DNA of 64,000 nucleotides from Fermentimonas sp. (lineage in GTDB: Bacteria > Bacteroidota > Bacteroidia > Bacteroidales > Dysgonomonadaceae): contig JBFLFV010000010.1 of assembly GCA_041859795.1 (NCBI GenBank), positions 19,648-83,647 on the forward strand. Reading direction: 5' to 3'. This document shows, piece after piece, positions 11,160-35,406 of this stretch; the stretch's first letter is position 1, and each line of letters starts with the position of its first letter. Position numbers and translations under genes: made by a program. The notes below the pieces were generated by a model that did not search any database, had not been told where the DNA came from, and worked only from the letters and a program-made list of their open reading frames with translations.

Positions 11160-11909
11160 ATGGCTCGTTATTTCACCTCTTTAGCATTTAATGGCAAAAA
11201 TTATGTTGGATGGCAAATTCAACCTAATGGTATAAGTGTACAGCAAACGTTGCAAGAAGCTTTTTCTACAATTTTAAGAAAAGACATTGAAATTGTTGGT
11301 GCGGGAAGGACCGACTCTGGTGTTCATGCACGAAAAATGACAGCTCATTTTGATATAGATGATGATTTCTTAATTTGTGAAGATTTAATTTTTAAACTTA
11401 ATAATTTTCTTCCAAAGGACATTAAAATACTCTCTATACAAAATGTAAGACCTGATGCACATGCACGCTTTGATGCTATGTCACGTACCTACAGATATTA
11501 TATCACAACAGTAAAAGATCCTTTTTTGCATGAATATACATATAGGGTTCATTTTACACCGGATATTGATATGATGAATAAACTTTCTTTGCAATTATTG
11601 TATTTTAAAGATTTTACCAGCTTTAGTAAAGCACACACCGATGTGAAAACCAATATTTGTAATATTGAATTTGCAAACTGGGAAAGAAAGAATGAATTAT
11701 ACGTATTCACAATTAGAGCTAATCGTTTTTTACGAAACATGATTAGAGCCATTGTGGGCACTTTACTTGAGGGGGGTAGGGGTCGCTTAGATGAAAAGGG
11801 TTTCAGTAGAATTATTGAAGCTAAGAATAGACAGGTTGCAGGAGACTCAGTACCAGGGCATGCACTTTTCCTTGAGGAAATTATTTATCCGGATGATATC
11901 TGGATTTAA
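11160..11909 (+). CDS. truA: tRNA pseudouridine(38-40) synthase
   Basis: GWQIQPN, GAGRTDSGVHA, NRFLRNMIRAIVG. Confidence 0.97.
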   Translation: MARYFTSLAFNGKNYVGWQIQPNGISVQQTLQEAFSTILRKDIEIVGAGRTDSGVHARKMTAHFDIDDDFLICEDLIFKLNNFLPKDIKILSIQNVRPDAHARFDAMSRTYRYYITTVKDPFLHEYTYRVHFTPDIDMMNKLSLQLLYFKDFTSFSKAHTDVKTNICNIEFANWERKNELYVFTIRANRFLRNMIRAIVGTLLEGGRGRLDEKGFSRIIEAKNRQVAGDSVPGHALFLEEIIYPDDIWI

Positions 11910-12016
11910 TATATAGTAAGCATTCGGTCTTGCCCGTATTTTATTCCAAGCTTTCTTAGATTCTTCCAAAAAACCTTTCAAAAACTTGTAAAACATTCGG
12001 AGACGGTTCGGAGTTT

Positions 12017-12386
12017 TTAGGAGGTTTTTCGTAGATAGTTTAAAGGAAGCAGTTCCGCAAGATCCATCGTGTAGTCCTGGTCATAATCGTGGATATGACT
12101 CAAAACATGCACCATCCAGTCACGGAAGTTCACATCTGCAGCTTTGCAGCATCCAAGTAAAGAGTAGATAACTGCAGCATCTTCTGCAGCGTCATGATTT
12201 CCGCAAAACAGGTAATTTTTCCTTCCCAGTGCCAGACCCCTCAGACTGTTTTCAGCAAGGTTGTTATCTATATGATACCTGCCATCCAGATGATAGCGGC
12301 TTAAACGGTGATAGATGTCATAACAGTATTTTATCGCCTTGCCTATCGGGCTTTTTGGTAATACTTTACCGTATTCATTCACCAGC
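12017..12386 (-). pseudogene. IS66 TnpC transposase, C-terminal fragment
   Basis: NEYGKVLPKSPIGKA...DNNLAENSLR...GRKNYLF, nearly identical to the C-terminus of the 32835 ORF. Confidence 0.92.
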
Positions 12387-12460
12387 TTGATATTCCGGTG
12401 ATATGCACCCAGTGATTCCGGTGATACCCACCCACTGGATAAACTATCAATTTGACAAAG

Positions 12461-13180
12461 TTATCTTTTTTTTCTTAAACTATCTCCTTTTAACTCTATT
12501 CTGTGAGACGTATGGATCACTCTGTCCATAAACGCATCAGCAATAGTTTCATCAGTAAACAGATCAAACCAGTTTGCCGGAGGTATCTGACTGGCTATGA
12601 TGGTCGCTTTGCGGGCATGTCTGTCTTCTATTATTTCCATAAAGTCCAACTGCTGCTGACTGTCCATTGTTCCTATTCCAAAGTCGTCAAAGATCAGTAA
12701 ATCAGTCTTTGCTAGCTTCTCAAGGAAGCGTGTCATTACACCTTCTATCCTGGCTATTTTGATTTTTGACATTAACTTTTGCATACTAAAGTAATTTACA
12801 CTAAACCCCTGTTTGCATGCCTGGTAACCAAACGAAGTGGCAATAAAACTTTTGCCGCATCCGGTTGCACCCGTAATTAATATTGACTCTCCGTTACGGA
12901 TGTAATTGCCTGTTGCCAGAGAGAGTACTTGAGACTTGTTCAGACCCCGTGACGTATCGAAGCTAACTTCCTCAAGAGAAGCCTGATATCTGAACGCTGC
13001 ATTTTTTAATAAACGGGCATATCGTTTGGATTCACGCTGATCTCGCTCACCCTGCAAAAGAAGTCTCAGCCCGTCTTGTAAAGAGAGTTCCTGTATTTTT
13101 CTGCTCTCTTGCAGCATCCCTAAGGTCTCTGCCATACCGGACAGACGTAATGTTATCAGTTCTGATTTAATCTGTTCCAT
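12461..13180 (-). CDS. istB: IS21 helper ATPase IstB
   Basis: GATGCGKS Walker A, LLIFDDFG Walker B, DAFMDRVIH. Confidence 0.95.
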   Translation of the reverse strand: MEQIKSELITLRLSGMAETLGMLQESRKIQELSLQDGLRLLLQGERDQRESKRYARLLKNAAFRYQASLEEVSFDTSRGLNKSQVLSLATGNYIRNGESILITGATGCGKSFIATSFGYQACKQGFSVNYFSMQKLMSKIKIARIEGVMTRFLEKLAKTDLLIFDDFGIGTMDSQQQLDFMEIIEDRHARKATIIASQIPPANWFDLFTDETIADAFMDRVIHTSHRIELKGDSLRKKR

Positions 13181-13222
13181 CGTTTTTTAATATTTGTTTT
13201 TAAGTTAATGTGATGTAGGTAA

Positions 13223-14776
13223 TTAACCCACGTAATACTTTTTACCCCTTATGTTTATGTGTTTAATATTCATATTATTCTGATTATCTTCCTGCCACAT
13301 ATCGTGCAGGTACGCTTTGCTGTCAATAACTCTTTTAATTGACTTCAGAGTCAGGATGTCGTTTTCCAGAGCATAACGGCATACATTTTCAAAGGTCACC
13401 GGATCTGTTCTTCGCTGAAGTGCCAGCAGGCCGTCACATCTCTTGTACATGATCTCGGGTACTTCTACTCCCTTAAAAATAGCAGTAAACAGTTCAGAGA
13501 GAGTATCAGAGTGCCTCCCGGCCTGTCTGATATAAAACTCCGGACTTCGACTCTGATAGAAGTTGTGACTTGAGCTCATGTGCTCTTTGCGTGTAGTGTA
13601 CCCGAAGCCTGCAGAGCGTTTGTGTGTAGCAACACATTCTCCCCTGACATATATGCGAACTAAACTCCGGGTATAAACAATATCCGCCTGCTGACCGATA
13701 TATTGGAAGGGCGCCGAGTAGTAATGTTTATCACGTGCAAGATATATGCAGTTGTTTAAAGCAATCTTTAAGCTGGCGTAATATTTTACCTGGAAAGCAT
13801 CTTTCGGGAGCTCTTTAAGCAGTGGCTTTTCTTCTGCCAGGAACTTTTCTTCTCTGCAGTAATCTTTTTGCTGCTGTCGTGTCTGATTGTGTTCACGTGT
13901 CTTCTCTGCAAAGGCTTGATTTATCTCTTCGATGGAGAAGAATGTATGATGCCTGAGTTTTGCATAAACACGCCTGTAGATGATTTTTACCTCGTTCTCA
14001 ACGGCTGCCTTATCTTTTGGTTTAACCGCCCTGGCAGGTATAACGGCTATGCCGTAATGATTGGCAAAATCTTCCATCAGCCTGTTGAGTTCCGGCTCGA
14101 AACGATCAGCTTTAACTACTGCTGCCTTAAGATTATCGGGTACTATGATTTTTGGAGTACCTCCCAGATGATCTAAACAGCAGGTAAGGGCATGAAGAAA
14201 GTCATCGGTTCTCTGCGAAGGCACTGCCTTTATAAAGGTGTAGTCAGAGTATGGAAGACAGGCTACAAAAACCTGAGCCTTTAATACTTCACCTGTTTCA
14301 CGATCAATGTATGATACTGTGTCACCTGCAAAATCTACCAATAACTTCTCAGCAGGGTTGTAATGTATTATACTTCCCGGTTTACGGGCATTAATAACTT
14401 GCTGCAGATGATAACAGAACTGAGAGTAGCTATATCCTTCAGGATGATCCTGGCGATACTCCTGCCATATAATATATCGGGTTACGTGTCTTTTTTTAAG
14501 CTCTTTCTCGAAGTAGGGAATCATCTCTTTGAACTCATCGAACCGCTCCTGTTTGTAGGCAGGATTACCGGCAAACAAAACACGTTCAAGTTCAGGATCT
14601 TCAAGAGCTAAGAGTTCATCAATACTGTACTGTTGATTTGTTATCTTTTGAACGTAGCTATTGACTGTCCCTTTATATATACCCAGAACGGCCGCAATCT
14701 TGCGGTTTGAAACACCTTGCGCGTGTAAACGCAGTACTTGTTTTACCTTGCTCATACTAGTTATTGTTCCTGCCAT
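13223..14776 (-). CDS. istA: IS21 transposase IstA
   Basis: N-terminal HTH, LLVDFAG, PDNLKAAV, PKDKAAVEN. Confidence 0.95.
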   Translation of the reverse strand: MAGTITSMSKVKQVLRLHAQGVSNRKIAAVLGIYKGTVNSYVQKITNQQYSIDELLALEDPELERVLFAGNPAYKQERFDEFKEMIPYFEKELKKRHVTRYIIWQEYRQDHPEGYSYSQFCYHLQQVINARKPGSIIHYNPAEKLLVDFAGDTVSYIDRETGEVLKAQVFVACLPYSDYTFIKAVPSQRTDDFLHALTCCLDHLGGTPKIIVPDNLKAAVVKADRFEPELNRLMEDFANHYGIAVIPARAVKPKDKAAVENEVKIIYRRVYAKLRHHTFFSIEEINQAFAEKTREHNQTRQQQKDYCREEKFLAEEKPLLKELPKDAFQVKYYASLKIALNNCIYLARDKHYYSAPFQYIGQQADIVYTRSLVRIYVRGECVATHKRSAGFGYTTRKEHMSSSHNFYQSRSPEFYIRQAGRHSDTLSELFTAIFKGVEVPEIMYKRCDGLLALQRRTDPVTFENVCRYALENDILTLKSIKRVIDSKAYLHDMWQEDNQNNMNIKHINIRGKKYYVG

Positions 14777-14844
14777 ACGATTGTGTGATTAGATTTTATA
14801 TCACAATCATATGAAAAAATATTTAACTAGTGGGTGGATATGTC

Positions 14845-16735
14845 GGTTCTTCGTCAAATTTGGTGCAGGTTATCCTGAGTTGGAAAGCACTACCTTTCGT
14901 CTTAACAGTTCAAATCCAGCCCTGCCATACATCTCTCTTTTCTTGTTTTTTAATCTGTTTACGTGACCCTCTACAACTCCATTACTCCAAGGGTATTTAA
15001 TGGCGTTTTTTACTGCTTCCAAATCATGATTAATACCATTTATAAAACTTCTAATCTTTTTTATTTCGGTCGACTTATAATTATCAATCCATTGGTCTAA
15101 TCTGAGTTCATCTTTACTGTTTAAAACCTCTCTAAAAGTGTTGTATGCTTCTCTCATTTGTTTTAGTAGCATAGAGGAGTTAATAATCTCCTCTGCCAAT
15201 ATGTGAGACTTGCTGCACTCGCCTGTTTCTTTTGAAACACCCCATTCACTATTTGTTAAATGAATGGCAAGTCTGTTGGGTGACATTCCGCTAAATCGAG
15301 TTACCTCATAAACTATCGGGGAGGAACTTGGCAATCTTTTCTTACTCTGATATTCCGGGAAGTGCCTGTTGAACCACTGATAAAAGGATGTTTGATTACC
15401 CTTGAATCCCCGTTCTTTTATAGAGACAAATATAGTTCTTACATTTAACCCCTGATTACAACACTCCTTAATCAGATCCATAAAATCTCCATAATTATTA
15501 TAATAGATGGCTGTTCGTGGCAACAACTCTTCCATTTCAAAATAATATCTTACAGTATTACGATTAATGTTTAAAGCCTTGGCAATTGCTCTTTGAGAGT
15601 AGTTGTTGTTTTTAAGCTCATGAATCCTGTTAAACAACTCCTGTTTTCTATGGTTAACACTATTGGTGTGTTTGTTATATTGTGAATCGCTGGTATTTTC
15701 GTTATCTCCACTACTTAAACAGCTGTTATTTTCTTTGCTTTTATAAAGACTCTTCCTGTGAGCCAACCAACTGCTTTTAATGGTTTTATACTCCATTCGT
15801 ATTTCATGTGCTATGTGATCTCCCAGATTTTTCACCAAATGAAACCTGTCGGCTATTTGTGACGCCTTGGATGCCCCAGACTTTATAGCATTAGAATAGC
15901 TGCTTGATCGATCCCTGGTTACATACAGTATGGAGTTATGTTCTTTAAGCCAATCTGCAACCTCCTCTTTGTCTCTACTCTTTAGTAGTTCCACGGGACG
16001 GTGGTTAATCGCATTTACAATAATAGTACCATATGATTTGCCTTTCCTGTATGCCCAGTCATCTATACCGATGGTAGTTAGCTCCTGATAATCGGGCATT
16101 CCTATTGACTTAACTATTCTAAGACAGGTGGAACTGCTCTGTTTTATTGATAAGAGATCGCTTATATACTCACCTTTACGAGAGGAGACCTCAATGAGCA
16201 GCCTTTGTAAATAATGACTTGTGCGCTCTGTTAGTCGAGCGTATTTCTGAGTTAATGGCAGATGTTGCTCAGAGAAAATTGTTTGAGTGCAATTACTATT
16301 ACGACATCTAAACTTTCTGACTTGAAGTATAATTTAACAGCTCTGCCAACTGCAGCAAGATCAGTTAATTTGCGCATATATGATGAGTGAACACTTTTAC
16401 TCCTTTTTCCGCAAGAGGGACATTTTGCAGTCTTGCCTTTAAGACGGGCAGATAGAAGAATCAAATCTTCATTTATAAAGGAATCATAAAATACAACACC
16501 CGGGATTCCAAAAATAGCTTGAAGGGAGTGTTTGTTTATAGAAAAGTTATTATCTTTGGTTTGGCTAGTGTAGTTAATCATCTTTAAAACCTTTAGTTTC
16601 AGAGCTTTAAAGATAATAAAAATGATTCGATTATACTAGCTTTTTGTTATTTATTTACCTGTAAATCTGTATAATAAGTCTGTTTTTTTTGAAGATTTAA
16701 GAACTGTTATTTTGCACCAAATTTGACGAAGAACC
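14845..16735 (-). mobile_element. ISL3 family element nested in the IS21 left end
   Basis: 23-bp perfect IR GGTTCTTCGTCAAATTTGGTGCA; 8-bp TSD GATATGTC at 14837-14844 and 16736-16743. Confidence 0.93.
14870..16581 (-). pseudogene. ISL3 transposase, frameshifted (one base missing near 16322)
   Basis: The N-terminal ORF has the CPSCG Zn ribbon. Restoring one A gives LYFKVRKFRCRN..., in frame with IGIDDWAYRKG, ADRFHLVKN and SNGVVEGHVNRLK. Confidence 0.88.
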
Positions 16736-17057
16736 GATATGTCCCGGAATCCATGAATGATAAAAAACAGTAAGAGCTAAATCTTAAAAGACATTATATC
16801 TGAATATTACATCCTAAAAGTGGGTGCACTTGCTCCGGAATCAGATGATTTTTTACGCTACCTTGCAATGCTGGGTGCATATGCTCCGGAATCTGATGCG
16901 TGCCCTCCTTTTTAGCTCATTTTTGCTCTCTTATTTTATCATTATGAAAGCCTTATTATTGGATATGTAGCAAAATGATTGATTATGGAAGACTTAACTG
17001 TCTTCTTAAATCATTGGATTTTGCCCGGAAAGTGGGTGCATATGGTCCGGATTATCT

Positions 17058-18343
17058 ACCAGCCACTTTTCAAAGACAACCATAATGGGATAAGCGTGTG
17101 TCTCTCGTAACCTAGCTCTCTCCTGGTAAGAAAGATTCTTATCATCAGCCTCTCTTTCTACTTCGTATAGAAGTCCGATTTGCTCAAGAGCATATTCAGC
17201 TCTTTCCCTATCATTTTTGAGCGACTCCTCAAACTTTCTTCTTGCATGAGCCCAGCAACCAAGGGGTAGTACATCTTTTTTGTATTCGTACATTTGGTAT
17301 ACACTGTACCCGTCCGTTTGCATGGCACCTCGGAAGTCTTTAAAAAGGGATAATGCTACCTTCTGTGCTCTTGAGCCATTGTCATAATGGAAGAAGACCT
17401 GCTTGTCTATCACAGAGCGCACCATCCACATGTATCCATTTACGGTTTTATGCTTCTCGTTATTTATTATGGGAACGGTGGTTTCATCCACCTGGATATA
17501 ATCGGTGGCAAGAACTATTTCTTTAAGCCGGTAATATAGTGGTCTCAGCAGATCGGCCGTATCCTTGAACCAATCGTTCACCGTTGGCGGAGGAAGATTT
17601 ACACCCATCTGCTTCATCATCTGTATCTGTCGGTAAAAAGGAAGGTGATTAACGTACTTGTTTATCATCAGTTCCGCCAAGAGTGATGCTCCGGCATAAC
17701 TGCGTGCAATTGGTTGGTATTTTGCAGGAAGTGGTGCAGTTATAATAGAAGAAGAGTTCTGTGAATCCTGTTCAGTTTTGCTTTTTACAACATATTTATG
17801 ACGTATAATCTTCCTTACCCAGCATCTTCCGGGTTCATACTCCATAACTTCAGTAATCTCGGGCTCTAACTCTGTCAATGTATCAGAGTTGTCTTTTACC
17901 TCATCGGGATAAAGATGCTCTTCAACCCGGGGAAGATCTTCAGGTAAAGGTTTACGTACAGGTTTTCTTTTTACACGCTCTTTTACTCGCCTTTCTTTGA
18001 AAGTTTCTATATCTGCTTTGGCTGCTTCTGCAAGTTCTTTTTCTTCAGGTAAAAGGTCTATACCTTCAAAGTCGATCATGCGTTGCCTAGGATCTTCTTT
18101 TATAAAGCGTTCACTGGACTTGCCCCATATCCGACGTCTTAAGTAAGCAACCTGCTTTTCTAAATCAAGGATCTTTTCGTCTTTTTTGGATATGGTTTCC
18201 TCATACGAGGTTTTTAATGCATCAACATCCGTGCGATCTTCAAGCTTACCCTTCAGAAGCATGTTCTCCTGATATAAACGGTCGCATTTCTCCAAGAGGA
18301 GTTCTAAAAGCTCGTTAGTATTTTCTTTGTTTTCTTGCATCAT
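17058..18343 (-). pseudogene. IS66 TnpC transposase, N-terminal fragment
   Basis: IWGKSSE, KYVNHLPFYRQ, IQVDETT, MQTDGY, CWAHARRKF; breaks at KWLV at the IS21 junction. Confidence 0.93.
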
Positions 18344-18421
18344 TAATCTGTTAGATAACGAGAGTAAAGATACAAAAACGGTGCAATATATGCAAGTAAA
18401 AAAGAGACTAAAATCGTTTGT

Positions 18422-18772
18422 TTATGCGCCTTTCCATCGTTTTTTATATTTACATTTTTCAGTTTCAATACCCTGTACCATCAGCATAAGTTTCTGCCAA
18501 GAGAAGGGGTGCGATCTTCCATTTTCATCAAAAGAGGGTAATGTAAAATTACCTTTTTCAAGCTTCATATAATAAATTACAAGCCCACCATGTTCCATGT
18601 GCAGGGCCTTCAAACTGGTGCAATGACGGTTAAGAAAGATGAAAACATCTCCGCTTCGTACACTTTGTCCCATCTGATCCGTGACCAATCCGCTTAATGT
18701 GTAAAAACCTTTACGCATATCGGTAGGTTGTGGATAAAGCCAGTAACGCATTGAGTTGTTAAGGTTAAACAT
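18422..18772 (-). CDS. tnpB: IS66 accessory protein TnpB
   Basis: PTDMRKGF...LSGLV...DVFIFLNR...LEKG motif. This is the IS66 accessory protein, not the IS200/IS605 nuclease. Confidence 0.92.
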   Translation of the reverse strand: MFNLNNSMRYWLYPQPTDMRKGFYTLSGLVTDQMGQSVRSGDVFIFLNRHCTSLKALHMEHGGLVIYYMKLEKGNFTLPSFDENGRSHPFSWQKLMLMVQGIETEKCKYKKRWKGA

Positions 18773-18775
18773 GCT

Positions 18776-19135
18776 TTATTGGGTTAGAAGGATTAAAGAG
18801 CGCAGTTGGTTGATGTCTTCACCAGCTTGGACACGTAATTTAACTCCATTGGGATATACTATTTCAAAAACATCACCGGAAGCAGGGTCAGCATGCTCTT
18901 GTAATAGTTTCTGTTGAGCCTTACTTTTTGTCTGCATTTGCGGAGCTGAACCGGTAAAAACAATCGGTACAAAATCAGAAGGTTGTTCTCTAAGTTGATT
19001 ATGCTCATGTAATTTCTTTTTCCAATAGTAAAACTTAGAATGGAGTATGCACTCATTTGCGCAAAAATCTGTAACAGAAAGACCGCTGGATAGGAAGCGA
19101 TCATAAACTAATTTAAACTGCTGTATTGACCACAT
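18776..19135 (-). CDS. tnpA: IS66 accessory protein TnpA (HTH)
   Basis: SGLSVTDFC...SKFYYWKK...FEIVYPNGVKLRV. Confidence 0.9.
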   Translation of the reverse strand: MWSIQQFKLVYDRFLSSGLSVTDFCANECILHSKFYYWKKKLHEHNQLREQPSDFVPIVFTGSAPQMQTKSKAQQKLLQEHADPASGDVFEIVYPNGVKLRVQAGEDINQLRSLILLTQ

Positions 19136-19202
19136 ATCTTTTTGTGGACAAATATAGAGGAGATTAACAGTTAAAATAAGACGTGGTAGACCGAATGCTT
19201 AC

Positions 19203-19235
19203 ATATGGACTTAATATGGACTTAGTATGGACATA
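19203..19235. repeat. Three tandem 11-bp repeats (ATATGGACTTA)
   Basis: ATATGGACTTA ATATGGACTTA GTATGGACATA, directly abutting the IS66 end. Confidence 0.8.
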
Positions 19236-19312
19236 ATCTATCCCAAATTCGGCTTAAAACTAACGCGATAACCGCTTTTCCTAATCGGAAAATGTCTTTT
19301 GTTATCCCGGTA

Positions 19313-19906
19313 TCATATTTCAAAGAGGAAAGGTTTGTTCAGCAACCGATAATACACATCGACTATCGATGCGTTTGCAAAGAGGGTGTCCTTTTCTTTT
19401 TCCATGCCGTATGCATCATGAATATGTCCGAAAAGATGGTATCGGGGACGGATATCCATTACGGTTTGTAACAAATCACGATCGCCATAATGGATATTGG
19501 CGGAGTTGTCCAGTATGCCATAGGGAGGCTGGTGCGTCATTAGGATATCCGTATCATCGGGTATTTTTTGAAAGCTTTCATCGTAGTTCCCCGAGATTAT
19601 ATCTTCCATGAACAGAGGCATTCCATGGAATTTAAGGCCGTCAATCACCACACTTGAATTGTACAGATAAAAACAGTTCTCGGGTAAACCCTCTATATTT
19701 GCTTCATGGAGGCAGTTATCATGGTTGCCAGCAATAAAAACTTTGTAGGTATAGGGCAGCGACGAAAACCATTGGATAAAATCGAACGCTTCATCTTCTG
19801 AACCGGCAAAGGATATGTCCCCGGAGTGCACGATAACGTCGGCTCGCGGCATATCGCTCAATTGATGATGCTGACCATGGGTATCGGAAATGTGAAGAAT
19901 GCGCAT
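19313..19906 (-). CDS. Calcineurin-like metallophosphoesterase (MPPED-like)
   Basis: ISDTH, HSGDIS, IAGNHD, THQPP and FGHIH metal motifs. Confidence 0.93.
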   Translation of the reverse strand: MRILHISDTHGQHHQLSDMPRADVIVHSGDISFAGSEDEAFDFIQWFSSLPYTYKVFIAGNHDNCLHEANIEGLPENCFYLYNSSVVIDGLKFHGMPLFMEDIISGNYDESFQKIPDDTDILMTHQPPYGILDNSANIHYGDRDLLQTVMDIRPRYHLFGHIHDAYGMEKEKDTLFANASIVDVYYRLLNKPFLFEI

Positions 19907-19909
19907 GGA

Positions 19910-20428
19910 CTATACCGATTCATTGGAACGATGAAACAAAGGAGCGGATAAAGCGATTCGGGCACAGGCCTCCGCATCGGCCAATGCATGATGGTGGTTG
20001 TCTAGGTTATACCCAATATGCTTTGCCACAGTCTTCAATTGATAATTCTGTAAGCCTGGAAAATGCTTCTTTGCCGCTCGACAGGTGCAATGAAATGTAT
20101 AATCGGGATACTCTATTCCGTATAGATCGTGTACGGCCTTTAAACAACCGGAATCGAACGGACTATTATGAGCAATCAGTGGCAAATCCTTTAGTTTAGG
20201 CGAAATCTCCTGCCAAACCTCCGGGAATTCAGCTTCATCAAGCGTGTCGTGATAGGTAAGACCGTGAATCCTGGTCGCCCAGAAGGAGTAAAAATTAGGG
20301 CGAGGACGCACGAGCCGGTAAAACTTATCGACTATTATTTCATTCTCCACAATAACGACTCCAACACTGCAAATGCTGGAGCGATTGTGATTGGCCGTCT
20401 CAAAATCAATCGCCGCGAAAGATTTCAT
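19910..20428 (-). CDS. DEDDh 3'-5' exonuclease
   Basis: AIDFETAN, IAHNSPFD, HHALADAEAC. Confidence 0.93.
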   Translation of the reverse strand: MKSFAAIDFETANHNRSSICSVGVVIVENEIIVDKFYRLVRPRPNFYSFWATRIHGLTYHDTLDEAEFPEVWQEISPKLKDLPLIAHNSPFDSGCLKAVHDLYGIEYPDYTFHCTCRAAKKHFPGLQNYQLKTVAKHIGYNLDNHHHALADAEACARIALSAPLFHRSNESV

Positions 20429-20496
20429 AGTTTATTTTTTATTCAATACAAATTTAGCGTAACAATGTGCTTAGTAGCGGTACGATTATAAAGTTT

Positions 20497-21582: not shown

Positions 21583-21598
21583 TAAAGTTTTATCATTT

Positions 21599-22510: not shown

Positions 22511-22563
22511 GCTCTCTTTATTGCTATTTCTTTTTTGCATATCAATTATAAACAACACTACAC

Positions 22564-22582
22564 TACGCCAAATAATGGCGCA
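22564..22582. promoter_or_regulatory. Candidate WYL1 operator TACGCC-N7-GGCGCA
   Basis: CGCCA AATAA TGGCG inverted repeat between a terminator and the WYL1 start. Confidence 0.55.
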
Positions 22583-22600
22583 TCTAAAACAAAATACAAT

Positions 22601-22626: not shown

Positions 22627-22642
22627 AGGCCTTACGGCAAAG

Positions 22643-22894: not shown

Positions 22895-22928
22895 TTAAAT
22901 ATCAAATTCAAGTTTTTAATCCAAAGCT

Positions 22929-23972: not shown

Positions 23973-24075
23973 AGCAGTTTATCATGAGATTTATTAAATT
24001 TTCATCAAAGATATAGAAACAATTCCACATAACATCATTAAAATTAATATAAAATTCAATGCTTGAGAAGCATTC

Positions 24076-24765: not shown

Positions 24766-24774
24766 TCTAAATTT

Positions 24775-25476: not shown

Positions 25477-25547
25477 CGGATCACTGGTTATCTCACTTTT
25501 CGTTCAACACGGCGGAATTTACAAAAACAGTGGAAAGAAAAATTTTC

Positions 25548-26450: not shown

Positions 26451-26478
26451 ACCGTGTTGGTTTTTAGCTATTGAAATA

Positions 26479-26520
26479 CGAAGATAAAACTTTACAGCGA
26501 TAAAACATGTCGCCGTAAAG
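26479..26520 (-). promoter_or_regulatory. WYL2 promoter -7 box and palindromic operator candidate
   Basis: TATCTTCG (-7-like, 26479-26486) and the inverted repeat CTTTACAGCGA-N9-TCGCCGTAAAG (core CGAT-N7-GTCG). Confidence 0.65.
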
Positions 26521-26528
26521 TTCATTTT

Positions 26529-28202
26529 TCAAAAACCTATCTTTTTTCTTGTTTTTAAGTTGATTTTTTCTGCATCGCAAAGTCCGCATAATTCACCAAA
26601 AGTAGGATTCTCGCCCGTTAAGATGTTATGAACAGTATATTTTCGGGTTATATTTTCAATTTGTCCTCCGCTGAAATCGTAAGTTTCCGACAGTGTTGTT
26701 AATTCCTCGTCTTTCAATTCGGGAAGCATCGTTTTCCAAATCGCCTGTTTTGCTTCAAGCGAAGGCTTTCCAAATTCTATTTTATAAATAAATCTGCGTT
26801 CAAAAGCCTTGTCTAAATTCTGTATGAGATTGGTTGTGGCGATAAGAATCCCATCTAAATTTTCCATTTCCTGCAAAATAATATTCTGAATGGAATTTTC
26901 CATTTTATCGACAGCCCTGCTTGCGCCTTCGTTGCGGATACCCAACACCGCATCAGCCTCGTTAAACAGAAGTATGGGCGCAATTTCCGATTGTCTTACA
27001 TGCTCTCGGTAAGACTCAAAAGACTCTTTGATATTCTTTTCGCTTTCTCCTACCCACATGCTTTTTATGCGTGAAACATCTATCGGAAAAATATCGCGTC
27101 CCGTTTGTCGTGCAAGCTGATATACCGTTTCAGTTTTACCAGTGCCGGGAGTGCCGTAAAATAAACAGGCAAAACCTTGTCTCATGCCATTTTCTGCAAG
27201 ACGGTTACGGATGTCGTCAAAATTTTCCTGTTTCAGCAAATTGCTTAATTGCTCAATCTGTTTTCGCTCGTTTTCGTTGTAAAACAATTTTTTATCGGCA
27301 ATCGAATCCTGTAAAATAAAATATTTTTTATTCAATGGTTTTCTCCAGTCAATATTCATCTCTGAAAGTAATTCTTTTTTTGCAAAATCAGTCAGTTTGA
27401 AACTTTCTACGTCTATAAACCCATCATTGTAGGCATTTTCTATCAATTTATAGTCAAATAAGGCATTGTATTGTTTTTGCAACGAATTATAGAGACGGCT
27501 GCCCGCATATCTTTCAAAAAAATCTTCAAAATCATAAAGACCTATATTGTCGTCTTTATCGCGCACAAAGAGCAGACAGAAACGTAGTAGCAGCAACTTG
27601 TCCATGCAACCGAGATTATACGCTTCCGTTTTTTCAACAAAAGTCAATTGAGAATTATCTTCAAACAAGGAGTCTATCTCATCTATTAAACCCATGTATG
27701 TCAATTCATTCTCTTTTCTTTCATCAAATAATTTTTCCAATTCCAGAAAAAAATCAGCAAGTGAAATATTTTTTTTATTGGCGGGTATATATTCCTTATC
27801 CTCTATAAACGAGTCGAGAACCTCTCGAGGAACACGGAAATAGGTTTGTTCGCCGTTTCGTCTGCTGCAACGAATCAAGCGTCTCTTCTCCAACACATCA
27901 ATATCACTCATATATTGTAGCAGTTTGATAGTACGGCATCCGATAGTTTTAGAAATTTCGCTGATATAAATACTATGATCCTCGCTTTTATCTATAAAAT
28001 GTGATAACAACACAACCTGCATATCATTTAGTTGTAAGCGCTTTTTAAGCAGATCGATATGCGGTTTTGCCTTTTCAAAAAACTCATTATTTAATTCTGA
28101 GTTTTCTGAAAGCTCCACTATTTTTTCAATATGAGCCAAAACACCAAGATTCATTCCGTCCGTTGCGTCAGACGCTTCTTTTGTTACGTTCAATTGTATC
28201 AT
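26529..28202 (-). CDS. AAA+ ATPase (single Cdc48/SpoVK-like module) with a ~300-aa N-terminal region
   Basis: LFYGTPGTGKT Walker A, LLFNEADA Walker B, LIATTNL sensor, LDKAFERRF arginine finger, terminal KKIGF. Confidence 0.93.
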   Translation of the reverse strand: MIQLNVTKEASDATDGMNLGVLAHIEKIVELSENSELNNEFFEKAKPHIDLLKKRLQLNDMQVVLLSHFIDKSEDHSIYISEISKTIGCRTIKLLQYMSDIDVLEKRRLIRCSRRNGEQTYFRVPREVLDSFIEDKEYIPANKKNISLADFFLELEKLFDERKENELTYMGLIDEIDSLFEDNSQLTFVEKTEAYNLGCMDKLLLLRFCLLFVRDKDDNIGLYDFEDFFERYAGSRLYNSLQKQYNALFDYKLIENAYNDGFIDVESFKLTDFAKKELLSEMNIDWRKPLNKKYFILQDSIADKKLFYNENERKQIEQLSNLLKQENFDDIRNRLAENGMRQGFACLFYGTPGTGKTETVYQLARQTGRDIFPIDVSRIKSMWVGESEKNIKESFESYREHVRQSEIAPILLFNEADAVLGIRNEGASRAVDKMENSIQNIILQEMENLDGILIATTNLIQNLDKAFERRFIYKIEFGKPSLEAKQAIWKTMLPELKDEELTTLSETYDFSGGQIENITRKYTVHNILTGENPTFGELCGLCDAEKINLKTRKKIGF

Positions 28203-28240
28203 AATTGTATTATTTTTTGTGATGATTCAACTTTTGCAAG

Positions 28241-28553
28241 CTACATAAACCCGCTTGTAGTAGGTTTTGAAATCGGCCATTGTTCCGGTGCACTAGTACC
28301 AAAACAGATTTGAGCGTTTGGTCATTCTTTTGCGGCATTTCTTGCCGTATCATTTTTACCTTATGCAGATGTTACCCCAAAAGGCTTGTTCTTTTTTTCT
28401 CTTTTTTAGCAAGCAGATTAAAATCTAAATATAATCAGCATAATGTATAACCTTGAAAACGAAAAAAGAACCAGCACAACTTTGTAATGATTGCCGTACA
28501 TTACATTGTCAGCATTAAGAAAACCGAATTTTTAATCCAAAATGTCAAAGAGC
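28241..28553 (-). ncRNA. Candidate structured leader RNA/ncRNA upstream of the AAA ATPase
   Basis: Nested stems (28384-28413 with 28452-28475, enclosing 28413-28439), hairpins at 28333-28347 and 28241-28260, boxA-like GCTCTTTGACA at 28543-28553, no credible ORF. Confidence 0.4.
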
Positions 28554-28778
28554 GTATGAAACTGAAAATTCTCTCTATGGCTTTTCACTTAAAGTAAAAA
28601 GTTGCTTACTTCTGAAAGTATTATCGCTTCTTTGTGGTGCAACATATTTTTTTGGCTTGTATTTCAAACATATAACTTCTGAATATCAGAGACTTGCCAA
28701 ATTTTAAACATTGCTTTTTTGTAGTAAAAAAGCGAGTTTTGATACCTGCGAAAGTTGAGTTATTTTTGTTTGAGAATA

Positions 28779-28819
28779 CAAAGATGGGGAGAGAGGACGA
28801 CAATCTGTGTCGCTGTAAA
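28779..28819 (-). promoter_or_regulatory. Second copy of the -7 box plus CGAC-N7-GTCG operator candidate
   Basis: CATCTTTG (28779-28786) and CGAC-AATCTGT-GTCGCTGTAAA, with the same 11-bp spacing as at 26479-26520. Confidence 0.6.
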
Positions 28820-28822
28820 TAA

Positions 28823-28850
28823 AAACTGCAACTTTTTTGAGTTGCAGTTT
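28823..28850 (-). terminator. Intrinsic terminator
   Basis: AAACTGCAACT-N6-AGTTGCAGTTT hairpin downstream of the DUF262-like remnant. Confidence 0.7.
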
Positions 28851-28935
28851 AAAGTTGTATATAATTTTCAGAATGGATGATTGTCGATGTATCTTTATCC
28901 TTTTAGTTTGAACGAATAAGGATTTGTTAAAGGTA

Positions 28936-29203
28936 TTAAATAATCTTTTTAACTTGGTCTTCTCTACTTGGTTTTTGTTGCCACGCTAATTTACAATATG
29001 ATTCATTGTTTGGAATAAGAATAAATGTTGCTCCTTCTATCAAATTATCTTTTTCAATTAATCGTTGCTTCCATTCTGGCATATCAGAAGGAATATTATA
29101 ATTAGCAATAATTTGTTGAAAACCTCCTTTGTCAACTAATTGGACAAATAAATCCATTAAATAATCTCTTTTCCAATCCTTACTTTTTGAAAACACCCTC
29201 AAA
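28936..29203 (-). pseudogene. 3' fragment of the IS21-interrupted (DUF262-like) gene
   Basis: Joins in frame to the 31894-32733 fragment when the IS21 and one TSD copy are removed (TVNDL|RVFSKSKDW). Confidence 0.8.
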
Positions 29204-29374
29204 TGTAACAAGAAATTAGAAATACAACAAAATCGGTAATCACAGTGCAACGAAAATGGAAACAAGAATACAACAAAAATGGTAACAATGATGCAGCAAA
29301 AACGGTAACAACGACACATCGTTTTTAATAAATTAATTCCACCTTTGAGTCATAATTTTTAAAGCAAAGGCATT

Positions 29375-30946
29375 ATGACAGAGAAGGATAAAAAATTATT
29401 GGACCGTTACATTATGCATGACACCATTCACAAACTCTATCACGTGCAGCACAAATCGCTGCGATGGATCGCCGTTCATCTTGGCATAAACTTTAGAACA
29501 GTAAAAAAGTTCCTGGACATGGACTCAGGCGAGTTTCAAAAGTATTCCGAGAGCATAAGTACCCGTAACTGCACTCTTGACCCTTACAAAAGTTTTATTG
29601 TAGATCGTCTTAACCTGTTTCAGGATACACCTGCTGCACAGATGCACGACTGGTTAAAAGAGCGCTATCCTTCATTTCCTGAGGTATCTGCAAAAACAGT
29701 TTACAATTACGTGATGAAGATCCGCCAGGAATACAACCTACCAAAACTTAAACCTGTCAATGAACGCGAGTATGGGCCTCTTCCCGATACTCCACCTGGA
29801 AAATATGCACAGGTTGACTTCGGTGAATACAAATTGCGCAAAGGAGATGGCTCAAGAATCAAAGTATACTTCTTTGCCATAATACTTGAATATAGCCGTT
29901 ACAAGTTTATATGGTTCCAGGACAAACCATTCACCAGTGAAAATGCAGTTTACGCTCATGAGCTAGCCTTTCGTTTCTTCCATGGGATACCCGGATTTAT
30001 CGTTTATGATCAGGACTCTGTATTCCTTTATGATGAAAATATAGGAGATTACCGCATGACAGATGTATTTGACAGCTATGTAAAGAGCCGTCCATTTAAG
30101 CCGGTCTTTTGCCGGAGGGCAGATCCTGAAAGCAAAGGCAAAATAGAAAACGTTATCAAATATGTCAAACAGAACTTCTTACTGAACAGATCTTACAGTA
30201 ACATTGACAATCTTAATAAAGATGTAGAAAGCTGGTTGAACAGAACCGGTAATGCAATGGTACATAATACCACCTGTAAAGTTCCCTACGAGGTGTGGTG
30301 CTCAGAATGTAAAGATCTGCAACCCTATGTACCCGTAACCTCTTCAACACTTGAAAAAGGTCATAAGGTGTTAAGCACAAACAAGCTCCGTTATAAAGGA
30401 AGCCTTTACTCTCTTCCCTTTGGTACATACCGTGGTGAGGAGACCAGAGTGCTTGCTCAAGAAGAAGATGGCTCCCTGGTTATTAAAACCATAAATGGAG
30501 AGCTTTTGGCAAAGCATCTTATTGCTGCAGGTCGTGGTGAAAACATTGTAAATAATAATCACCAGCGTGACAGATCAGCAAGCATTGAAAAGCTGAGCGA
30601 ACAGGTAAAGAGCCGGTTCACGGATAAATCCGGTTCTGAAGTCTTCGTTGCAAAGCTACGAGATCGTTATCCCCGTTATATACGGGACCAACTGACTGTT
30701 ATGCTTAACTGCCTTGCAAAATATACACGGCAGGACTGCGATAAAGCGCTTGACCTATGCCTGAGTAAAGGACTTTTCAGTGCTACCGACTTCAAGTCGA
30801 TACTCTCTCAGGTTACTCCTATTATTGAAATCAATGAAGAGGTGGAGATTAAACCACTTGGAACACCGCAAACCAGGTTAATGGTTAATATCAAGCCAAA
30901 CAGGTCAGACATTGATGTGTATCAAAACCTCTTTAAGACCAACTGA
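29375..30946 (+). CDS. istA: IS21 transposase IstA
   Basis: AQVDFG, VYDQD, DPESKGKIEN. Confidence 0.95.
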   Translation: MTEKDKKLLDRYIMHDTIHKLYHVQHKSLRWIAVHLGINFRTVKKFLDMDSGEFQKYSESISTRNCTLDPYKSFIVDRLNLFQDTPAAQMHDWLKERYPSFPEVSAKTVYNYVMKIRQEYNLPKLKPVNEREYGPLPDTPPGKYAQVDFGEYKLRKGDGSRIKVYFFAIILEYSRYKFIWFQDKPFTSENAVYAHELAFRFFHGIPGFIVYDQDSVFLYDENIGDYRMTDVFDSYVKSRPFKPVFCRRADPESKGKIENVIKYVKQNFLLNRSYSNIDNLNKDVESWLNRTGNAMVHNTTCKVPYEVWCSECKDLQPYVPVTSSTLEKGHKVLSTNKLRYKGSLYSLPFGTYRGEETRVLAQEEDGSLVIKTINGELLAKHLIAAGRGENIVNNNHQRDRSASIEKLSEQVKSRFTDKSGSEVFVAKLRDRYPRYIRDQLTVMLNCLAKYTRQDCDKALDLCLSKGLFSATDFKSILSQVTPIIEINEEVEIKPLGTPQTRLMVNIKPNRSDIDVYQNLFKTN

Positions 30947-30947
30947 T

Positions 30948-31739
30948 ATGACAGCAAATAAAACAACAGCCATACGAGGATATGCAAAGAGGTTAAGGCT
31001 ATCGGGGTTGACTCTCAATGCTCAGGATATCCTACTCAAAGCACAACAGGAATCACCAAGTTATGATGATTTTCTTAGACATATATTGGAGATGGAAATA
31101 AAGGGACGTGAAGAAAAGCAGAGGCTTTTACGCTTAAAAGCAGCCAGACTTCCTTTGGCACATAATCTGGATCAATATGACCACAGTATATCAAATGGTC
31201 TGAGTGTTACCCAGCTAAATCAGCTCAGAGAACTGCATTGGATTGATGATAGCTATAATCTTATGCTCACCGGACCTTGCGGTGTAGGCAAAACCTTTAT
31301 TGCTGCCGGCCTTTGTGCAGATGCCATTGACAAGGGATATAAAGCCTACTTCAGGAGCATTGATGAAATACTAACCACATTGAAACTGAAAGATATAGTT
31401 GCCAGTGCAAAAAAGGATTATAAAAATATCGCCACTGCTGATGTTATAGTCATAGATGATCTGATGAATATACCTGTCAGCCGTGATGACGGAAGCCTTC
31501 TCTTTGTATTTATAAACAGCATATATGAATCTACGTCACTTATAATCACCACTAACAAATCACCTGCAGAGTGGGCTCGTTCACTTGATGATGAAGTGTT
31601 GGCAACAGCACTCCTGGACAGGATTTTATATAAATGTGAACTCTTGCAGTTATCCGGGAACAGCTATCGTATGACTAACAGAAAAACTATTTTTAAAGAT
31701 GAACAGAAAAAAGAAATTGGGCAAAAAACAAAAATATAG
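30948..31739 (+). CDS. istB: IS21 helper ATPase IstB
   Basis: GPCGVGKT, IVIDDL, ALLDRIL. Confidence 0.95.
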   Translation: MTANKTTAIRGYAKRLRLSGLTLNAQDILLKAQQESPSYDDFLRHILEMEIKGREEKQRLLRLKAARLPLAHNLDQYDHSISNGLSVTQLNQLRELHWIDDSYNLMLTGPCGVGKTFIAAGLCADAIDKGYKAYFRSIDEILTTLKLKDIVASAKKDYKNIATADVIVIDDLMNIPVSRDDGSLLFVFINSIYESTSLIITTNKSPAEWARSLDDEVLATALLDRILYKCELLQLSGNSYRMTNRKTIFKDEQKKEIGQKTKI

Positions 31740-31893
31740 AATGAGAATATTAACGAATAAATTATCTTTGCAACTGATGCACTATTGTTACTGAATATGC
31801 TGCATCATTGTTACCGAAAGTGTTGCATTGTTGTTGCCAAAAACGCTGCACTCTAAATTACCGAAAATGCTGCATTCTTAATTACCGTTTACA

Positions 31894-32733
31894 TCAAATC
31901 ATTAACGGTTTCTAATAACCATCTTTTATGACAATCAAAACTGTATGACCAACTTCCCCAAACTTCATAATAGTTATTTTTCCTGATCGTTAAAAATGCT
32001 CGTTTAAAATCGTCAGAAAGTTTGGTGTTTGCATCTTCAAAATTGCTGGTAATTACCGATAATATCTTTTCCAACTTAACCTTATCAAATGTGGTTGGAT
32101 CTGAATCTTCAATGTCATAATCAGTACAATACAAAGCAAAATCAATTCTTCCCTTACAGAAATTTGCATCTTCCATATCGTGGATAACTTGTTTTGAATC
32201 AGGACTTTTAACGATTATTTTTGCTTTCTCTATTTCTTCTTTTATTTGGCTTTGACGGTGACCTGATTTGATCGTGTTTTCAGAGAGAAAGCCATAAATA
32301 TTTAAACAGCCAGCTGAAAGTTCTTGAATTAAGTTTACTGCCGAAATGAAAGTTGTAGCACTATCAATAGTTGAGTTTTCTACAATATTTCGTATAACTC
32401 GCATCCAATCATTGAAAGTATTTACATCAAATTCAGAGTTTAACAGATATACAGTTTGGGCATAAAAAATAACCCTGTTTTGCCATTCCAATTTTTCATT
32501 TTGAATAATATCCTTGAATAGAGTTTCGTTACAATATTTCCATAAATCAACATTAGTCTTTAGTTCTGAATAATCATCTTGAGAATACTTATCAAAACAT
32601 TTTACTAAATATTCAAATGCTTTTTTTGTCGAAAAATCATTAGGTGCAATTTCATTTGGGTTATTAAACAGAATAACCATTCTACGCTCAATTCTTTCTC
32701 GTTTTATAGCATTATCTGAAATATTTTTATTTT
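31894..32733 (-). pseudogene. Internal fragment of a large protein resembling the C-terminal region of DUF262/GmrSD-type proteins; 5'-truncated by IS66
   Basis: The frame is open up to the IS66 boundary (NKNISDNAIKRERIERRMVILF). DWMRVIRNIVEN...EEIEKAKII...FCKGRIDFAL resembles DUF262 protein C-termini (from recall). Confidence 0.55.
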
Positions 32734-32834
32734 GTAAGCATTCGGTCTTGCCCGTATTTTATTCCAAGCTTTCTTAGATTCTTCCAAAAAACCTTTCAAA
32801 AACTTGTAAAACATTCGGAGACGGTTCGGAGTTT

Positions 32835-34916
32835 TTAGGAGGTTTTTCGTAACCAATTTAAAGGAAGCAGTTCAGCAAGATCCATTGTGTAGTCCTGATC
32901 ATAATCGTGGATATGACTCAAAACATGTACCATCCAGTCACGGAAGTTCACTTCTGCAGCCTTACAGCATCCAAGTAAAGAGTAGATAACTGCAGCATCT
33001 TCTGCAGCGTCATGATTTCCGCAAAACAGGTAGTTCTTCCTGCCAAGCGCCAGACCTCTCAGACTATTTTCGGCAAGGTTATTATCTATATGGTACCTTC
33101 CATCCAGATGATAACGACTTAAACGGTGATAGATGTCATAACAGTATTTTATCGCCTTGCCTATCGGGCTTTTTGGTAACACTTTACCGTATTCATTTAC
33201 CAGCCATTTTTCAAAGACAACCATAATGGGGTAAGCGTGTGTCTCTCGCAGCTTGGCTCTCTCCTGGTAAGAAAGATTCTTATCATCAGCCTCTCTTTCT
33301 ACTTCGTATAGAAGTCCGATTTGCTCAAGAGCATATTCAGCTCTTTCCCTATCATTTTTGAGCGACTCCTCAAACTTTCTTCTTGCATGAGCCCAACAAC
33401 CAAGGGGTAGTACATCTTTTTTGTATTCGTACATTTGGTATACACTGTACCCGTCTGTCTGCATTGCACCTCGGAAGTCTTTTAAAAGTGATAATGCTAC
33501 CTTCTGTGCTCTTGAGCCTTGATCATAATGGAAGAAGACCTGCTTGTCCATCGCAGAGCGCACCATCCACATGTATCCATTTACGGTTTTATGCTTCTCG
33601 TTATTTATTATGGGAACGGTGGTTTCATCCACCTGGATATAATCCGTGTCAAGAACTATTTCTTTAAGTCGGTAATATAATGGTCTCAACAAGTCGGCAG
33701 TATCCTTGAACCAATCGTTCACCGTTGGTGGTGGAAGATTTACACCCACCTGCTTCATCATCTGTATCTGACGATAAAAAGGAAGGTGGTTCACGTACTT
33801 GTTTATCATCAGTTCCGCCAAGAGTGATGCTCCGGCATAACTGCGTGCAATAGGCTGATATTTTGCAGGAAGTGGTGCAGTTATAATAGAAGAAGAGTTC
33901 TGTGAATCCTGTTCAGTTTTGCTTTTTACAACATATTTATGACGTATAATCTTCCTTACCCAGCATCTTCCGGGTTCATACTCCATAACTTCAGTAATCT
34001 CGGGCTCTAACTCTGTCAATGTATCAGAGTTGTCTTTTACCTCATCGGGATAAAGATGCTCTTCAACCCGGGGAAGATCTTCAGGTAAAGGTTTACGTAC
34101 AGGTTTTCTTTTTACACGCTCTTTTACTCGCCTTTCTTTGAAAGTTTCTATATCTGCTTTGGCTGCTTCTGCAAGTTCTTTTTCTTCAGGTAAAAGGTCT
34201 ATACCTTCAAAGTCGATCATGCGTTGCCTAGGATCTTCTTTTATAAAGCGTTCACTGGACTTGCCCCATATCCGACGTCTTAAGTAAGCAACCTGCTTTT
34301 CTAAATCAAGGATCTTTTCGTCTTTTTTGGATATGGTTTCCTCATACGAGGTTTTTAATGCATCAACATCCGTGCGATCTTCAAGCTTACCCTTCAGAAG
34401 CATGTTCTCCTGATATAAACGGTCGCATTTCTCCAAGAGGAGTTCTAAAAGCTCGTTAGTATTTTCTTTGTTTTCTTGCATCATTAACCTGTTAGATAAC
34501 GAGAGTAAAGATACAAAAACGGTGCAATATATGCAAGTAAAAAAAGAGACTAAAAACCGTTTGTTTATGCGCCTTTCCATCGTTTTTTTATATTTACATT
34601 TTTCAGTTTCAATACCCTGTACCATCAGCATAAGTTTCTGCCAAGAGAAGGGGTGCGATCTTCCATTTTCATCAAAAGAGGGTAATGTAAAATTACCTTT
34701 TTCAAGCTTCATATAATAAATCACAAGCCCACCATGTTCCATGTGCAGAGCCTTCAAACTGGTGCAATGACGGTTCAGAAAGATGAAAACATCTCCGCTG
34801 CGTACATTCTGTCCCATATGATCCGTGACCAATCCGCTTAATGTGTAAAAACCTTTGCGCATATCAGTAGGCTGTGGATAAAGCCAGTAACGCATCGAGT
34901 TGTTAAGGTTAAACAT
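32835..34916 (-). CDS. IS66 TnpB-TnpC in-frame fusion ORF
   Basis: TnpB motifs followed by full TnpC (DETT, TDGY, CWAHARR, DNNLAEN). Three extra homopolymer bases relative to copy 1 bypass the tnpB stop. Confidence 0.85.
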   Translation of the reverse strand: MFNLNNSMRYWLYPQPTDMRKGFYTLSGLVTDHMGQNVRSGDVFIFLNRHCTSLKALHMEHGGLVIYYMKLEKGNFTLPSFDENGRSHPFSWQKLMLMVQGIETEKCKYKKTMERRINKRFLVSFFTCIYCTVFVSLLSLSNRLMMQENKENTNELLELLLEKCDRLYQENMLLKGKLEDRTDVDALKTSYEETISKKDEKILDLEKQVAYLRRRIWGKSSERFIKEDPRQRMIDFEGIDLLPEEKELAEAAKADIETFKERRVKERVKRKPVRKPLPEDLPRVEEHLYPDEVKDNSDTLTELEPEITEVMEYEPGRCWVRKIIRHKYVVKSKTEQDSQNSSSIITAPLPAKYQPIARSYAGASLLAELMINKYVNHLPFYRQIQMMKQVGVNLPPPTVNDWFKDTADLLRPLYYRLKEIVLDTDYIQVDETTVPIINNEKHKTVNGYMWMVRSAMDKQVFFHYDQGSRAQKVALSLLKDFRGAMQTDGYSVYQMYEYKKDVLPLGCWAHARRKFEESLKNDRERAEYALEQIGLLYEVEREADDKNLSYQERAKLRETHAYPIMVVFEKWLVNEYGKVLPKSPIGKAIKYCYDIYHRLSRYHLDGRYHIDNNLAENSLRGLALGRKNYLFCGNHDAAEDAAVIYSLLGCCKAAEVNFRDWMVHVLSHIHDYDQDYTMDLAELLPLNWLRKTS

Positions 34917-34919
34917 GCT

Positions 34920-35279
34920 TTATTGGGTTAAGAGGATTAAAGATCGCAGCTGGTTGATGTCTGCACCAACGGGAACACGTAATTTAACTCCATTGGGATA
35001 AACAATTTCAAAAACATCACCGGCAACCTGGTCAGCATTCTCTGGCAATAGTTTCTGTTGAGCCTTTCTTTTTGTCTGCATTTGTGAAGTTGAACCGGTA
35101 AAAACAATCGGTACAAAATTGGACGGTTGTTCTTTATGTCGGTTATTCTTTATTGATTTATTTTTCCAATAATAAAACTTAGACTGAAGTATACACTCAT
35201 TTTCGCAAAAATCTTTAACAGATAAACCACTGGATTGGAAGCGATCATAAACTAACTCAAACTGCTGTATTGTCCACAT
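34920..35279 (-). CDS. tnpA: IS66 accessory protein TnpA
   Basis: Close homolog of 18776-19135. Confidence 0.9.
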   Translation of the reverse strand: MWTIQQFELVYDRFQSSGLSVKDFCENECILQSKFYYWKNKSIKNNRHKEQPSNFVPIVFTGSTSQMQTKRKAQQKLLPENADQVAGDVFEIVYPNGVKLRVPVGADINQLRSLILLTQ

Positions 35280-35406
35280 ATCTTTTTGAGGACAAATATA
35301 GAGGAGTTAAATAGTTAAATTAAGACGGGGTAGACCGAATGCTTACAATATATAAGTAAATATTAAAAGATATTTGTTTTTGTTTCGACAGGATTTTGAG
35401 TAAAAA

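Follow-up and report, generated by a model that had tools for sequence, protein, structure and literature searches.

The 64,000-nucleotide window analyzed here (contig C10:19648-83647 of a Fermentimonas sp. genome of 2.65 Mb in 21 contigs, G+C content about 36%) carries a 23.4 kb block between the convergent genes truA and rho. The block is bounded by two copies of an insertion sequence (IS) of the IS66 family, which lie in direct orientation, enclose 13.5 kb of cargo and are surrounded by an 8-bp duplication, AATATATA; six IS elements lie inside the block. An earlier note on this DNA had interpreted the entire block as a composite transposon that was inserted as a unit, and had named rearrangement between two insertions as the alternative. 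The comparison of the two arms with the other IS66 copies of the genome revealed that the arms are reciprocal IS66 recombinants, each switching from one sequence type to the other in a 630-bp identical tract, so that the proposed movement as one unit was not supported. The block probably entered by homologous recombination through a resident IS66 copy, which is essentially the alternative that the note had mentioned. The locus is organized as follows.

11160-11909, plus strand: truA, converging with rho on the block.
11908-11915, no strand: left 8-bp duplication AATATATA, overlapping the truA stop codon; single copy in the contigs L022-L024.
11916-19202, minus strand: IS66 copy 1, recognized by Pfam (DDE_Tnp_IS66, TnpB_IS66, LZ_Tnp_IS66), inverted repeats and mosaic pattern.
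19203-32733, minus strand: cargo of 13.5 kb, candidate defence-island fragment (Pfam, PADLOC), with a module found 99-100% identical elsewhere without IS66.
32734-35346, minus strand: IS66 copy 2 of 2613 bp, recognized by Pfam matches, inverted repeats and mosaic pattern.
35347-35354, no strand: right 8-bp duplication AATATATA; the rho terminator region comes next.
35473-37386, minus strand: rho, converging with truA on the block.

Copy 1 begins with GTAAGCATTCGG at 11916, immediately after the left AATATATA, and copy 2 finishes with ...CCGAATGCTTAC at 35346, immediately before the right one. The inner ends are flanked by unrelated sequence, ATATGGAC (19203-19210) at copy 1 and TTTATTTT (32726-32733) at copy 2, and show no matching duplication. 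The sequence statements of the earlier note, including the 8-mer common to both outer ends and the unrelated inner flanks, were all correct when the letters of the window were re-checked.

In order to compare the arms with other elements, the four full IS66 copies of the genome were aligned: copy 1 without its nested insertion, copy 2 and the copies on contigs C1 and C2. The latter two define type X; one single-base insertion is all that separates them. The alignment fell into three segments, given here in positions of the IS.

IS 141-1125: copy 1 is 94.2% identical to X, with 57 private sites; copy 2 is 100% identical to X.
IS 1126-1755: copies 1 and 2 are identical to each other; their only difference from X is a 1-base insertion private to C1.
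IS 1756-2590: copy 1 is 99.6% identical to X; copy 2 is 90.8% identical to X, with 74 private sites.

In this alignment, 57 of the 58 private sites of copy 1 were located within IS 141-1125 and 74 of the 78 private sites of copy 2 within IS 1756-2588, and a single breakpoint accommodated 131/136 of all private sites (Mann-Whitney p = 8e-18). The truA-side half of copy 1 and the rho-side half of copy 2 are non-X (termed Y and Y'), the cargo-side halves are X, and the switch falls in the 630-bp tract that is identical between the arms (IS 1126-1755). Among the private sites of copy 1 tnpC, 48/57 occupied one codon position, which indicated that Y represents an IS lineage that diverged under selection and did not arise by decay. 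A third lineage, Z, was represented by intact 2610-bp IS66 elements in Joint Genome Institute (JGI) metagenome contigs (L027-L036). Copy 1 differed from Z at 1 position over 901-1130 (18 differences from X), and copy 2 showed 0 differences from Z over 1961-2615 (67 from X). Both outer halves thus contain Z-lineage segments, which is consistent with their origin from one parent element. Four of the Z elements (L028, L033, L035 and L036) lack duplications and have flanks in common pairwise, indicating that recombination of IS66 by IS66 is common in these bacteria. The left flank of L028 equals that of L035, its right flank equals that of L031, and the right flank of L035 equals that of L033 and L036.

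The site without the block was present in three conspecific metagenome contigs (L022, L023 and L024), which were recovered by exact-protein look-up of Rho. In these contigs, truA and rho are 124 bp apart and AATATATA is present once; the L022 junction reads ...CTGGATTTAATATATAAGTAAATATTAAAAG.... The window without positions 11916-35354 aligned to them over 11.5 kb with 99.89% identity (13 mismatches, 0 gaps). Because the empty site carries one AATATATA, the match between the two outer ends is a real duplication and not a chance similarity. The empty site anticipated by the earlier note, truA-AATATATA-AGTAAATATT-rho, exists letter for letter, which bears out its claim that the block was inserted in the truA-rho spacer. 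truA and rho are also adjacent in four more-distant species of the genus (L004, L005, L006 and L012; TruA 66-73% identical). The occupied site was found in other samples, where one contig (L021) stops 61 bp into IS66 after truA-AATATATA and another (L025) has, in this order, 229 bp of IS66, AATATATA and rho. The duplication and the single-copy empty site are predicted equally by a resident solo IS66 with subsequent recombination and by composite transposition, and do not discriminate between them.

The related records found for this locus belong to Bacteroidales and Proteiniphilum metagenome-assembled genomes from anaerobic digesters. An exact protein from the module of PDC-S10 metallophosphoesterase, exonuclease and WYL regulator was indexed in 221 blocks of the collection, and the genes for the metallophosphoesterase, the DEDDh exonuclease and the first WYL protein occurred with 99-99.8% DNA identity in many contigs. 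The larger island comprises two GmrSD-like genes, an AAA ATPase gene, small open reading frames (ORFs), DUF6140, WYL, exonuclease and phosphoesterase genes. Nine of the ten fetched island loci run past ...GTCCATAT into TCTCTCCGTAG... without IS66; the tenth, L044, is the species' own IS66-bounded copy. L044 and L047 originate from sample ERZ27283060, the same sample as the occupied-site contig L025, and their cargo is joined to the same copy 1 inner end (154 bp of it in L044). In the collections searched, no occurrence of the cargo outside this locus of the species had IS66 at either junction. The opposite cargo end is represented by L050, which contains 100% identical DNA without IS66 and without the second IS21-family element of the cargo; its ORF of at least 495 aa is uninterrupted and continues for 386 bp past the TTTATTTT junction, in agreement with the earlier observation that copy 2 cuts a gene.

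The 386 bp past the TTTATTTT junction had no match in the genome studied here, and neither had the sequence immediately past the ATATGGAC junction; farther past ATATGGAC, the genome matched only in short repeats, an IS3-like stretch of about 78-80% identity and an IS66 end fragment. None of the IS66 copies of this genome carries the partner flanks of the inner junctions. A donor site within the genome was ruled out by the absence of both continuations, and the donor site was therefore almost certainly located in another genome or replicon. The cargo segment probably arrived by horizontal transfer, and ATATGGAC and TTTATTTT are probably the surviving halves of two older duplications. In other samples, the conserved right part of the island (phosphoesterase, exonuclease, WYL) was joined to different left parts, namely GmrSD-like pairs or a type I restriction enzyme. 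The island looks like a modular, putative defence island.

We propose that a single non-X (Y) IS66 would first have transposed into the truA-rho spacer, generating the duplication AATATATA. Almost certainly in a different genome or replicon, two IS66 elements of type X would have inserted independently into the candidate defence island, one at ATATGGAC downstream of the metallophosphoesterase gene and one at TTTATTTT inside the gene of at least 495 aa. The X-linked segment would then have entered the resident Y copy by RecA-type recombination inside the common 630-bp tract, either as a circle with one IS66 through a single crossover of the Campbell/Hfr type (Hfr, high frequency of recombination) or as linear IS66-cargo-IS66 DNA through two crossovers. 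The product would have the order Y-left/X-right, cargo, X-left/Y-right, with the duplication of the resident outside, and would mimic a composite transposon. The insertion of an IS1595-family element into the cargo and possibly the fusion of tnpB and tnpC in copy 2 would have occurred later in the lineage. As expected for a Campbell/Hfr-type integration, the outer halves of the arms come from one parent and the inner halves from the other, no duplication is common to the inner junctions, and the recipient lacks the donor flanks. Moreover, X-type sequence in copy 1 ends no more than about 25 bp short of the inner terminus, so that a crossover exchanging the flanks is needed. Gene conversion by the C1 and C2 copies as the main source of the X-type inner halves was ruled out on the grounds of this X tract, beyond which there is no homology. 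A cointegrate formed by replicative transposition was also rejected, since the arms are not identical and the inner junctions have no common 8-bp repeat.

Several observations weigh against entry through a resident element. A strain with a solo Y-type IS66 between truA and rho was not seen, the short-read contigs L021, L025 and L026 breaking at the IS. Y-specific 36-mers and 24-mers from the left half of copy 1 had 0 matches in metagenome contigs, and no complete pure-Y element was found: when 62 genomes of the genus were searched with this half, the best matches were the genome's own X-type copies (95%), and the nearest match in another species reached 93%. Exact look-ups of the 693-aa fusion of copy 2 and of the 445-aa ORF of copy 1 returned no independent record, and the pairing of the halves within each arm rests on this single assembly. 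In addition, the rho-side IS66 in sample ERZ27283060 resembles X as far as position 2542 and has Y' sequence in the last ~57 nt alone. This mosaic implies at least one further conversion or independent event, and the history was not one clean step; it is explained either by a copy 1-to-copy 2 conversion after integration or by an independent integration with another crossover point. Whereas the interior varies, the Y' terminus remains fixed next to rho; this is consistent with a resident element at this position.

True composite transposition, in which the IS66 transposase would act at the outermost inverted repeats and insert a 23-kb unit with formation of AATATATA, accounts for the intact outer inverted repeats, the 8-bp duplication around the whole block and the exact structure of the empty site. 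The unrelated inner flanks are likewise expected from two earlier independent insertions, and transposase could be supplied in trans by the intact C2 copy (119/116/549 aa). However, this explanation does not predict reciprocally chimeric arms with non-X outer and X inner halves; the arms are not whole, independent IS copies. The same recombination would be needed at an earlier site, followed by the 23-kb move as an extra step. A second site with the same ends and another duplication, as the earlier note had suggested looking for, was not found in the collections searched, no IS66 is present at either junction of the cargo elsewhere, a search of genome contigs for the inner junction IS66/ATATGGAC gave 0 matches, and the transposase genes are now damaged in both arms. 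Composite transposition is therefore unlikely. It is quite unlikely that the block is now a functional IS66 composite transposon mobilized in trans by the intact IS66 copy of the genome, with AATATATA resulting from a unit move and the chimeric arms made earlier elsewhere.

The mosaic could also be an artefact of assembly or polishing, in which the arms are uniform and the consensus switched within the 630-bp identical tract. The lack of an independent record of the transposase ORF of either arm in exact look-ups would agree with this, as would the incomplete IS66 with which contig C20 ends, which indicates that IS66 was not fully resolved in the assembly. Yet the assembly places the identical C1 and C2 copies within contigs, each with a duplication of its own, which speaks for reads spanning them, and all junctions that were seen in independent assemblies agree with the window (truA/IS66 in L021, IS66/rho in L025, cargo/copy 1 inner end in L044). 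Orphan contigs with donor flanks, expected from a switch error, were absent, and a chimeric rho-side arm was also present in another sample, in a k=119 assembly with no 119-mer common across the switch. We consider an artefact very unlikely. Targeted conservative integration is known from the IS6/IS26 family and is not known to occur in IS66. In IS26, one IS with its cargo joins a pre-existing IS copy to form a pseudo-compound transposon without a new duplication (PMC4196232, PMC4894685), and a translocatable unit of IS66 and cargo joined beside a resident IS66 would result in the same gross architecture, i.e., direct IS copies with the duplication of the resident outside and none inside. Such integration joins at the IS termini, leaves whole copies and needs a transposase of the IS6/IS26 family, whereas the arms described here belong to IS66 and switch in the middle of the element; it is hardly credible as their origin. 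Recombination through a resident IS66 remains the explanation that we favor.

The IS66 copies contain tnpA, tnpB (PF05717) and tnpC with DDE_Tnp_IS66 (PF03050), and have terminal inverted repeats beginning with GTAAGC and an 8-bp target duplication, as is characteristic of the family. The statement of the earlier note that IS66 elements generate 8-bp duplications was supported by the two other full copies of the genome, C1:22265-24875 with AATGCTCT and C2:56077-58686 with GCTGCAGC, and by the other six Z-lineage copies in metagenome contigs (L027-L036), each with its own clean 8-bp duplication. Intact relatives encode products of 119/116/549 aa, and the C2 copy is intact. The genes of the two arms are arranged as follows.

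18776-19135, minus strand: tnpA of copy 1 (IS66 ORF).
18422-18772, minus strand: tnpB of copy 1 (IS66 ORF).
17006-18343 and 12017-12382, minus strand: tnpC of copy 1, interrupted by an IS21-family element at IS position ~470.
34920-35279, minus strand: tnpA of copy 2 (IS66 ORF).
32835-34916, minus strand: in-frame tnpB-tnpC fusion of copy 2, 693 aa; separate products of 116 and 549 aa in intact relatives.

The tnpB stop codon of copy 2 was removed by small indels relative to X (+2 at IS positions 1817-1818, +1 at 1851). Further IS66 sequences were noted in the genome and in one island contig. An internally deleted derivative of about 700 bp (C2:331823-332528) retains both ends and interior pieces without a duplication. 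Contig C20 ends (9280-9438) in the left end of a fifth IS66, whose inverted repeat is a variant, GGTGTCGTCC, and which has an ACCAA patch (IS positions 119-123) in common with copy 2. An isolated IS66 end of 123 bp, which matches the outer end of copy 2 with 100% identity, is located at ~10051-10173 of L037, an unrelated metagenome contig, 1.35 kb beyond the island.

That two IS66 copies bound the block, as the earlier note had stated, is correct; copy 1, however, is no plain IS66, since it extends over 7.3 kb and carries IS21- and ISL3-family elements in tnpC. The elements are nested three deep within 11916-19202, ISL3 in IS21 in IS66 tnpC.

12387-17056, minus strand: IS21-family element in copy 1 tnpC, with ACCAGC repeat flanks; the only copy in the genome.
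13223-14776 and 12461-13180, minus strand: istA and istB, respectively, of this IS21 element.
14836-16744, minus strand: ISL3-family element inside this IS21 element, with 32-nt inverted repeats and a transposase split into ORFs of 109 and 409 aa.

The ends of the IS21 element in copy 1 contain 23-nt repeats (16817, 16868 and 17029). The cargo contains two further IS elements, and its genes were assigned by Pfam and PADLOC as indicated.

19313-19906, minus strand: metallophosphoesterase PDC-S10 (Pfam, PADLOC).
19910-20428, minus strand: DEDDh exonuclease, PDC-S48-like (Pfam, PADLOC).
20504-21580, minus strand: IS1595-family element with a frameshifted transposase gene; 4 copies in the genome; absent from the otherwise identical L044/L047 cargo.
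21599-22558 and 25548-26525, minus strand: WYL/WCX regulators (Pfam).
22929-23651 and 24076-24765, minus strand: cargo genes without assigned function.
24805-25476, minus strand: truncated paralogue of the IetA-like AAA ATPase (Pfam/PADLOC).
26529-28202, minus strand: IetA-like AAA ATPase (Pfam/PADLOC).
29205-31893, plus strand: second, unrelated IS21-family element with duplication TCAAAT; absent from L050.
29375-30946 and 30912-31739, plus strand: istA and istB, respectively, of the second IS21 element.
31894-32733, minus strand: middle piece of the gene of at least 495 aa, without family match; its 5' side is cut by copy 2, and the frame is open to the IS boundary.

The second IS21 element splits the same gene that is truncated by copy 2, and the 3' piece of this gene is located beyond it at 28936-29204. 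Around the IS1595-family element there is a direct repeat of 12-13 bp, (T)ATAAAGTTTTAT, which exceeds the usual 8 bp of this family. Three further copies on contig C3 are 99.3-99.9% identical, which indicated a recent insertion. At the copy 1 inner end, positions 19203-19240 consist of three imperfect tandem 11-bp units, ATATGGACTTA ATATGGACTTA GTATGGACATA, which also occur in IS-free island contigs among L037-L046 and thus belong to the island and not to the IS. Beside the block, rho (35473-37386, minus strand) encodes a protein of 637 aa with a long Lys/Glu/Gln-rich low-complexity insertion after the N-terminal domain, which includes 45-nt tandem repeats at DNA level (37083-37172). Rho proteins of Bacteroidota typically have large insertions.

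The block is a clean natural case in which an IS-typical duplication around an IS-cargo-IS structure can wrongly be taken to prove composite transposition. Where annotation pipelines recognize composite transposons by two IS copies and a flanking duplication, the comparison of the arms with the other copies of the IS offers a cheap discriminating test. The locus also suggests that a defence-island fragment spreads among anaerobic-digester Bacteroidales via IS66 homology. The mechanism itself is already known from textbooks, and the case is one of ordinary IS-mediated plasticity and of low novelty. The F plasmid integrates into the chromosome to form Hfr strains by recombination between IS copies on the circle and the chromosome (IS2, IS3 and gamma-delta). 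As in Hfr integration, direct IS copies flank the insert, the duplication of the resident lies outside, the arms are reciprocal, and no new duplication is formed. In contrast to integration by F, the IS belongs to the IS66 family and the host to the Bacteroidales, and no genes for replication or transfer are seen in the incoming DNA, which looks like a defence-island piece from between two IS66 insertions. With the composite transposons Tn5, Tn9 and Tn10, the block has in common two IS copies around a cargo, intact outer repeats and an IS-typical duplication; it differs from them by chimeric arms, damaged transposase genes and the lack of any sign that the block moved as a unit. IS26 units are formed by transposase-catalyzed reactions at the IS ends and contain whole copies, whereas here the exchange was internal, as in RecA-type recombination, and involved another IS family. 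Compared with the IS66 family itself, the two arms are ordinary IS elements except for the tnpB-tnpC fusion of copy 2 and the interruption of copy 1 by the IS21 and ISL3 elements.

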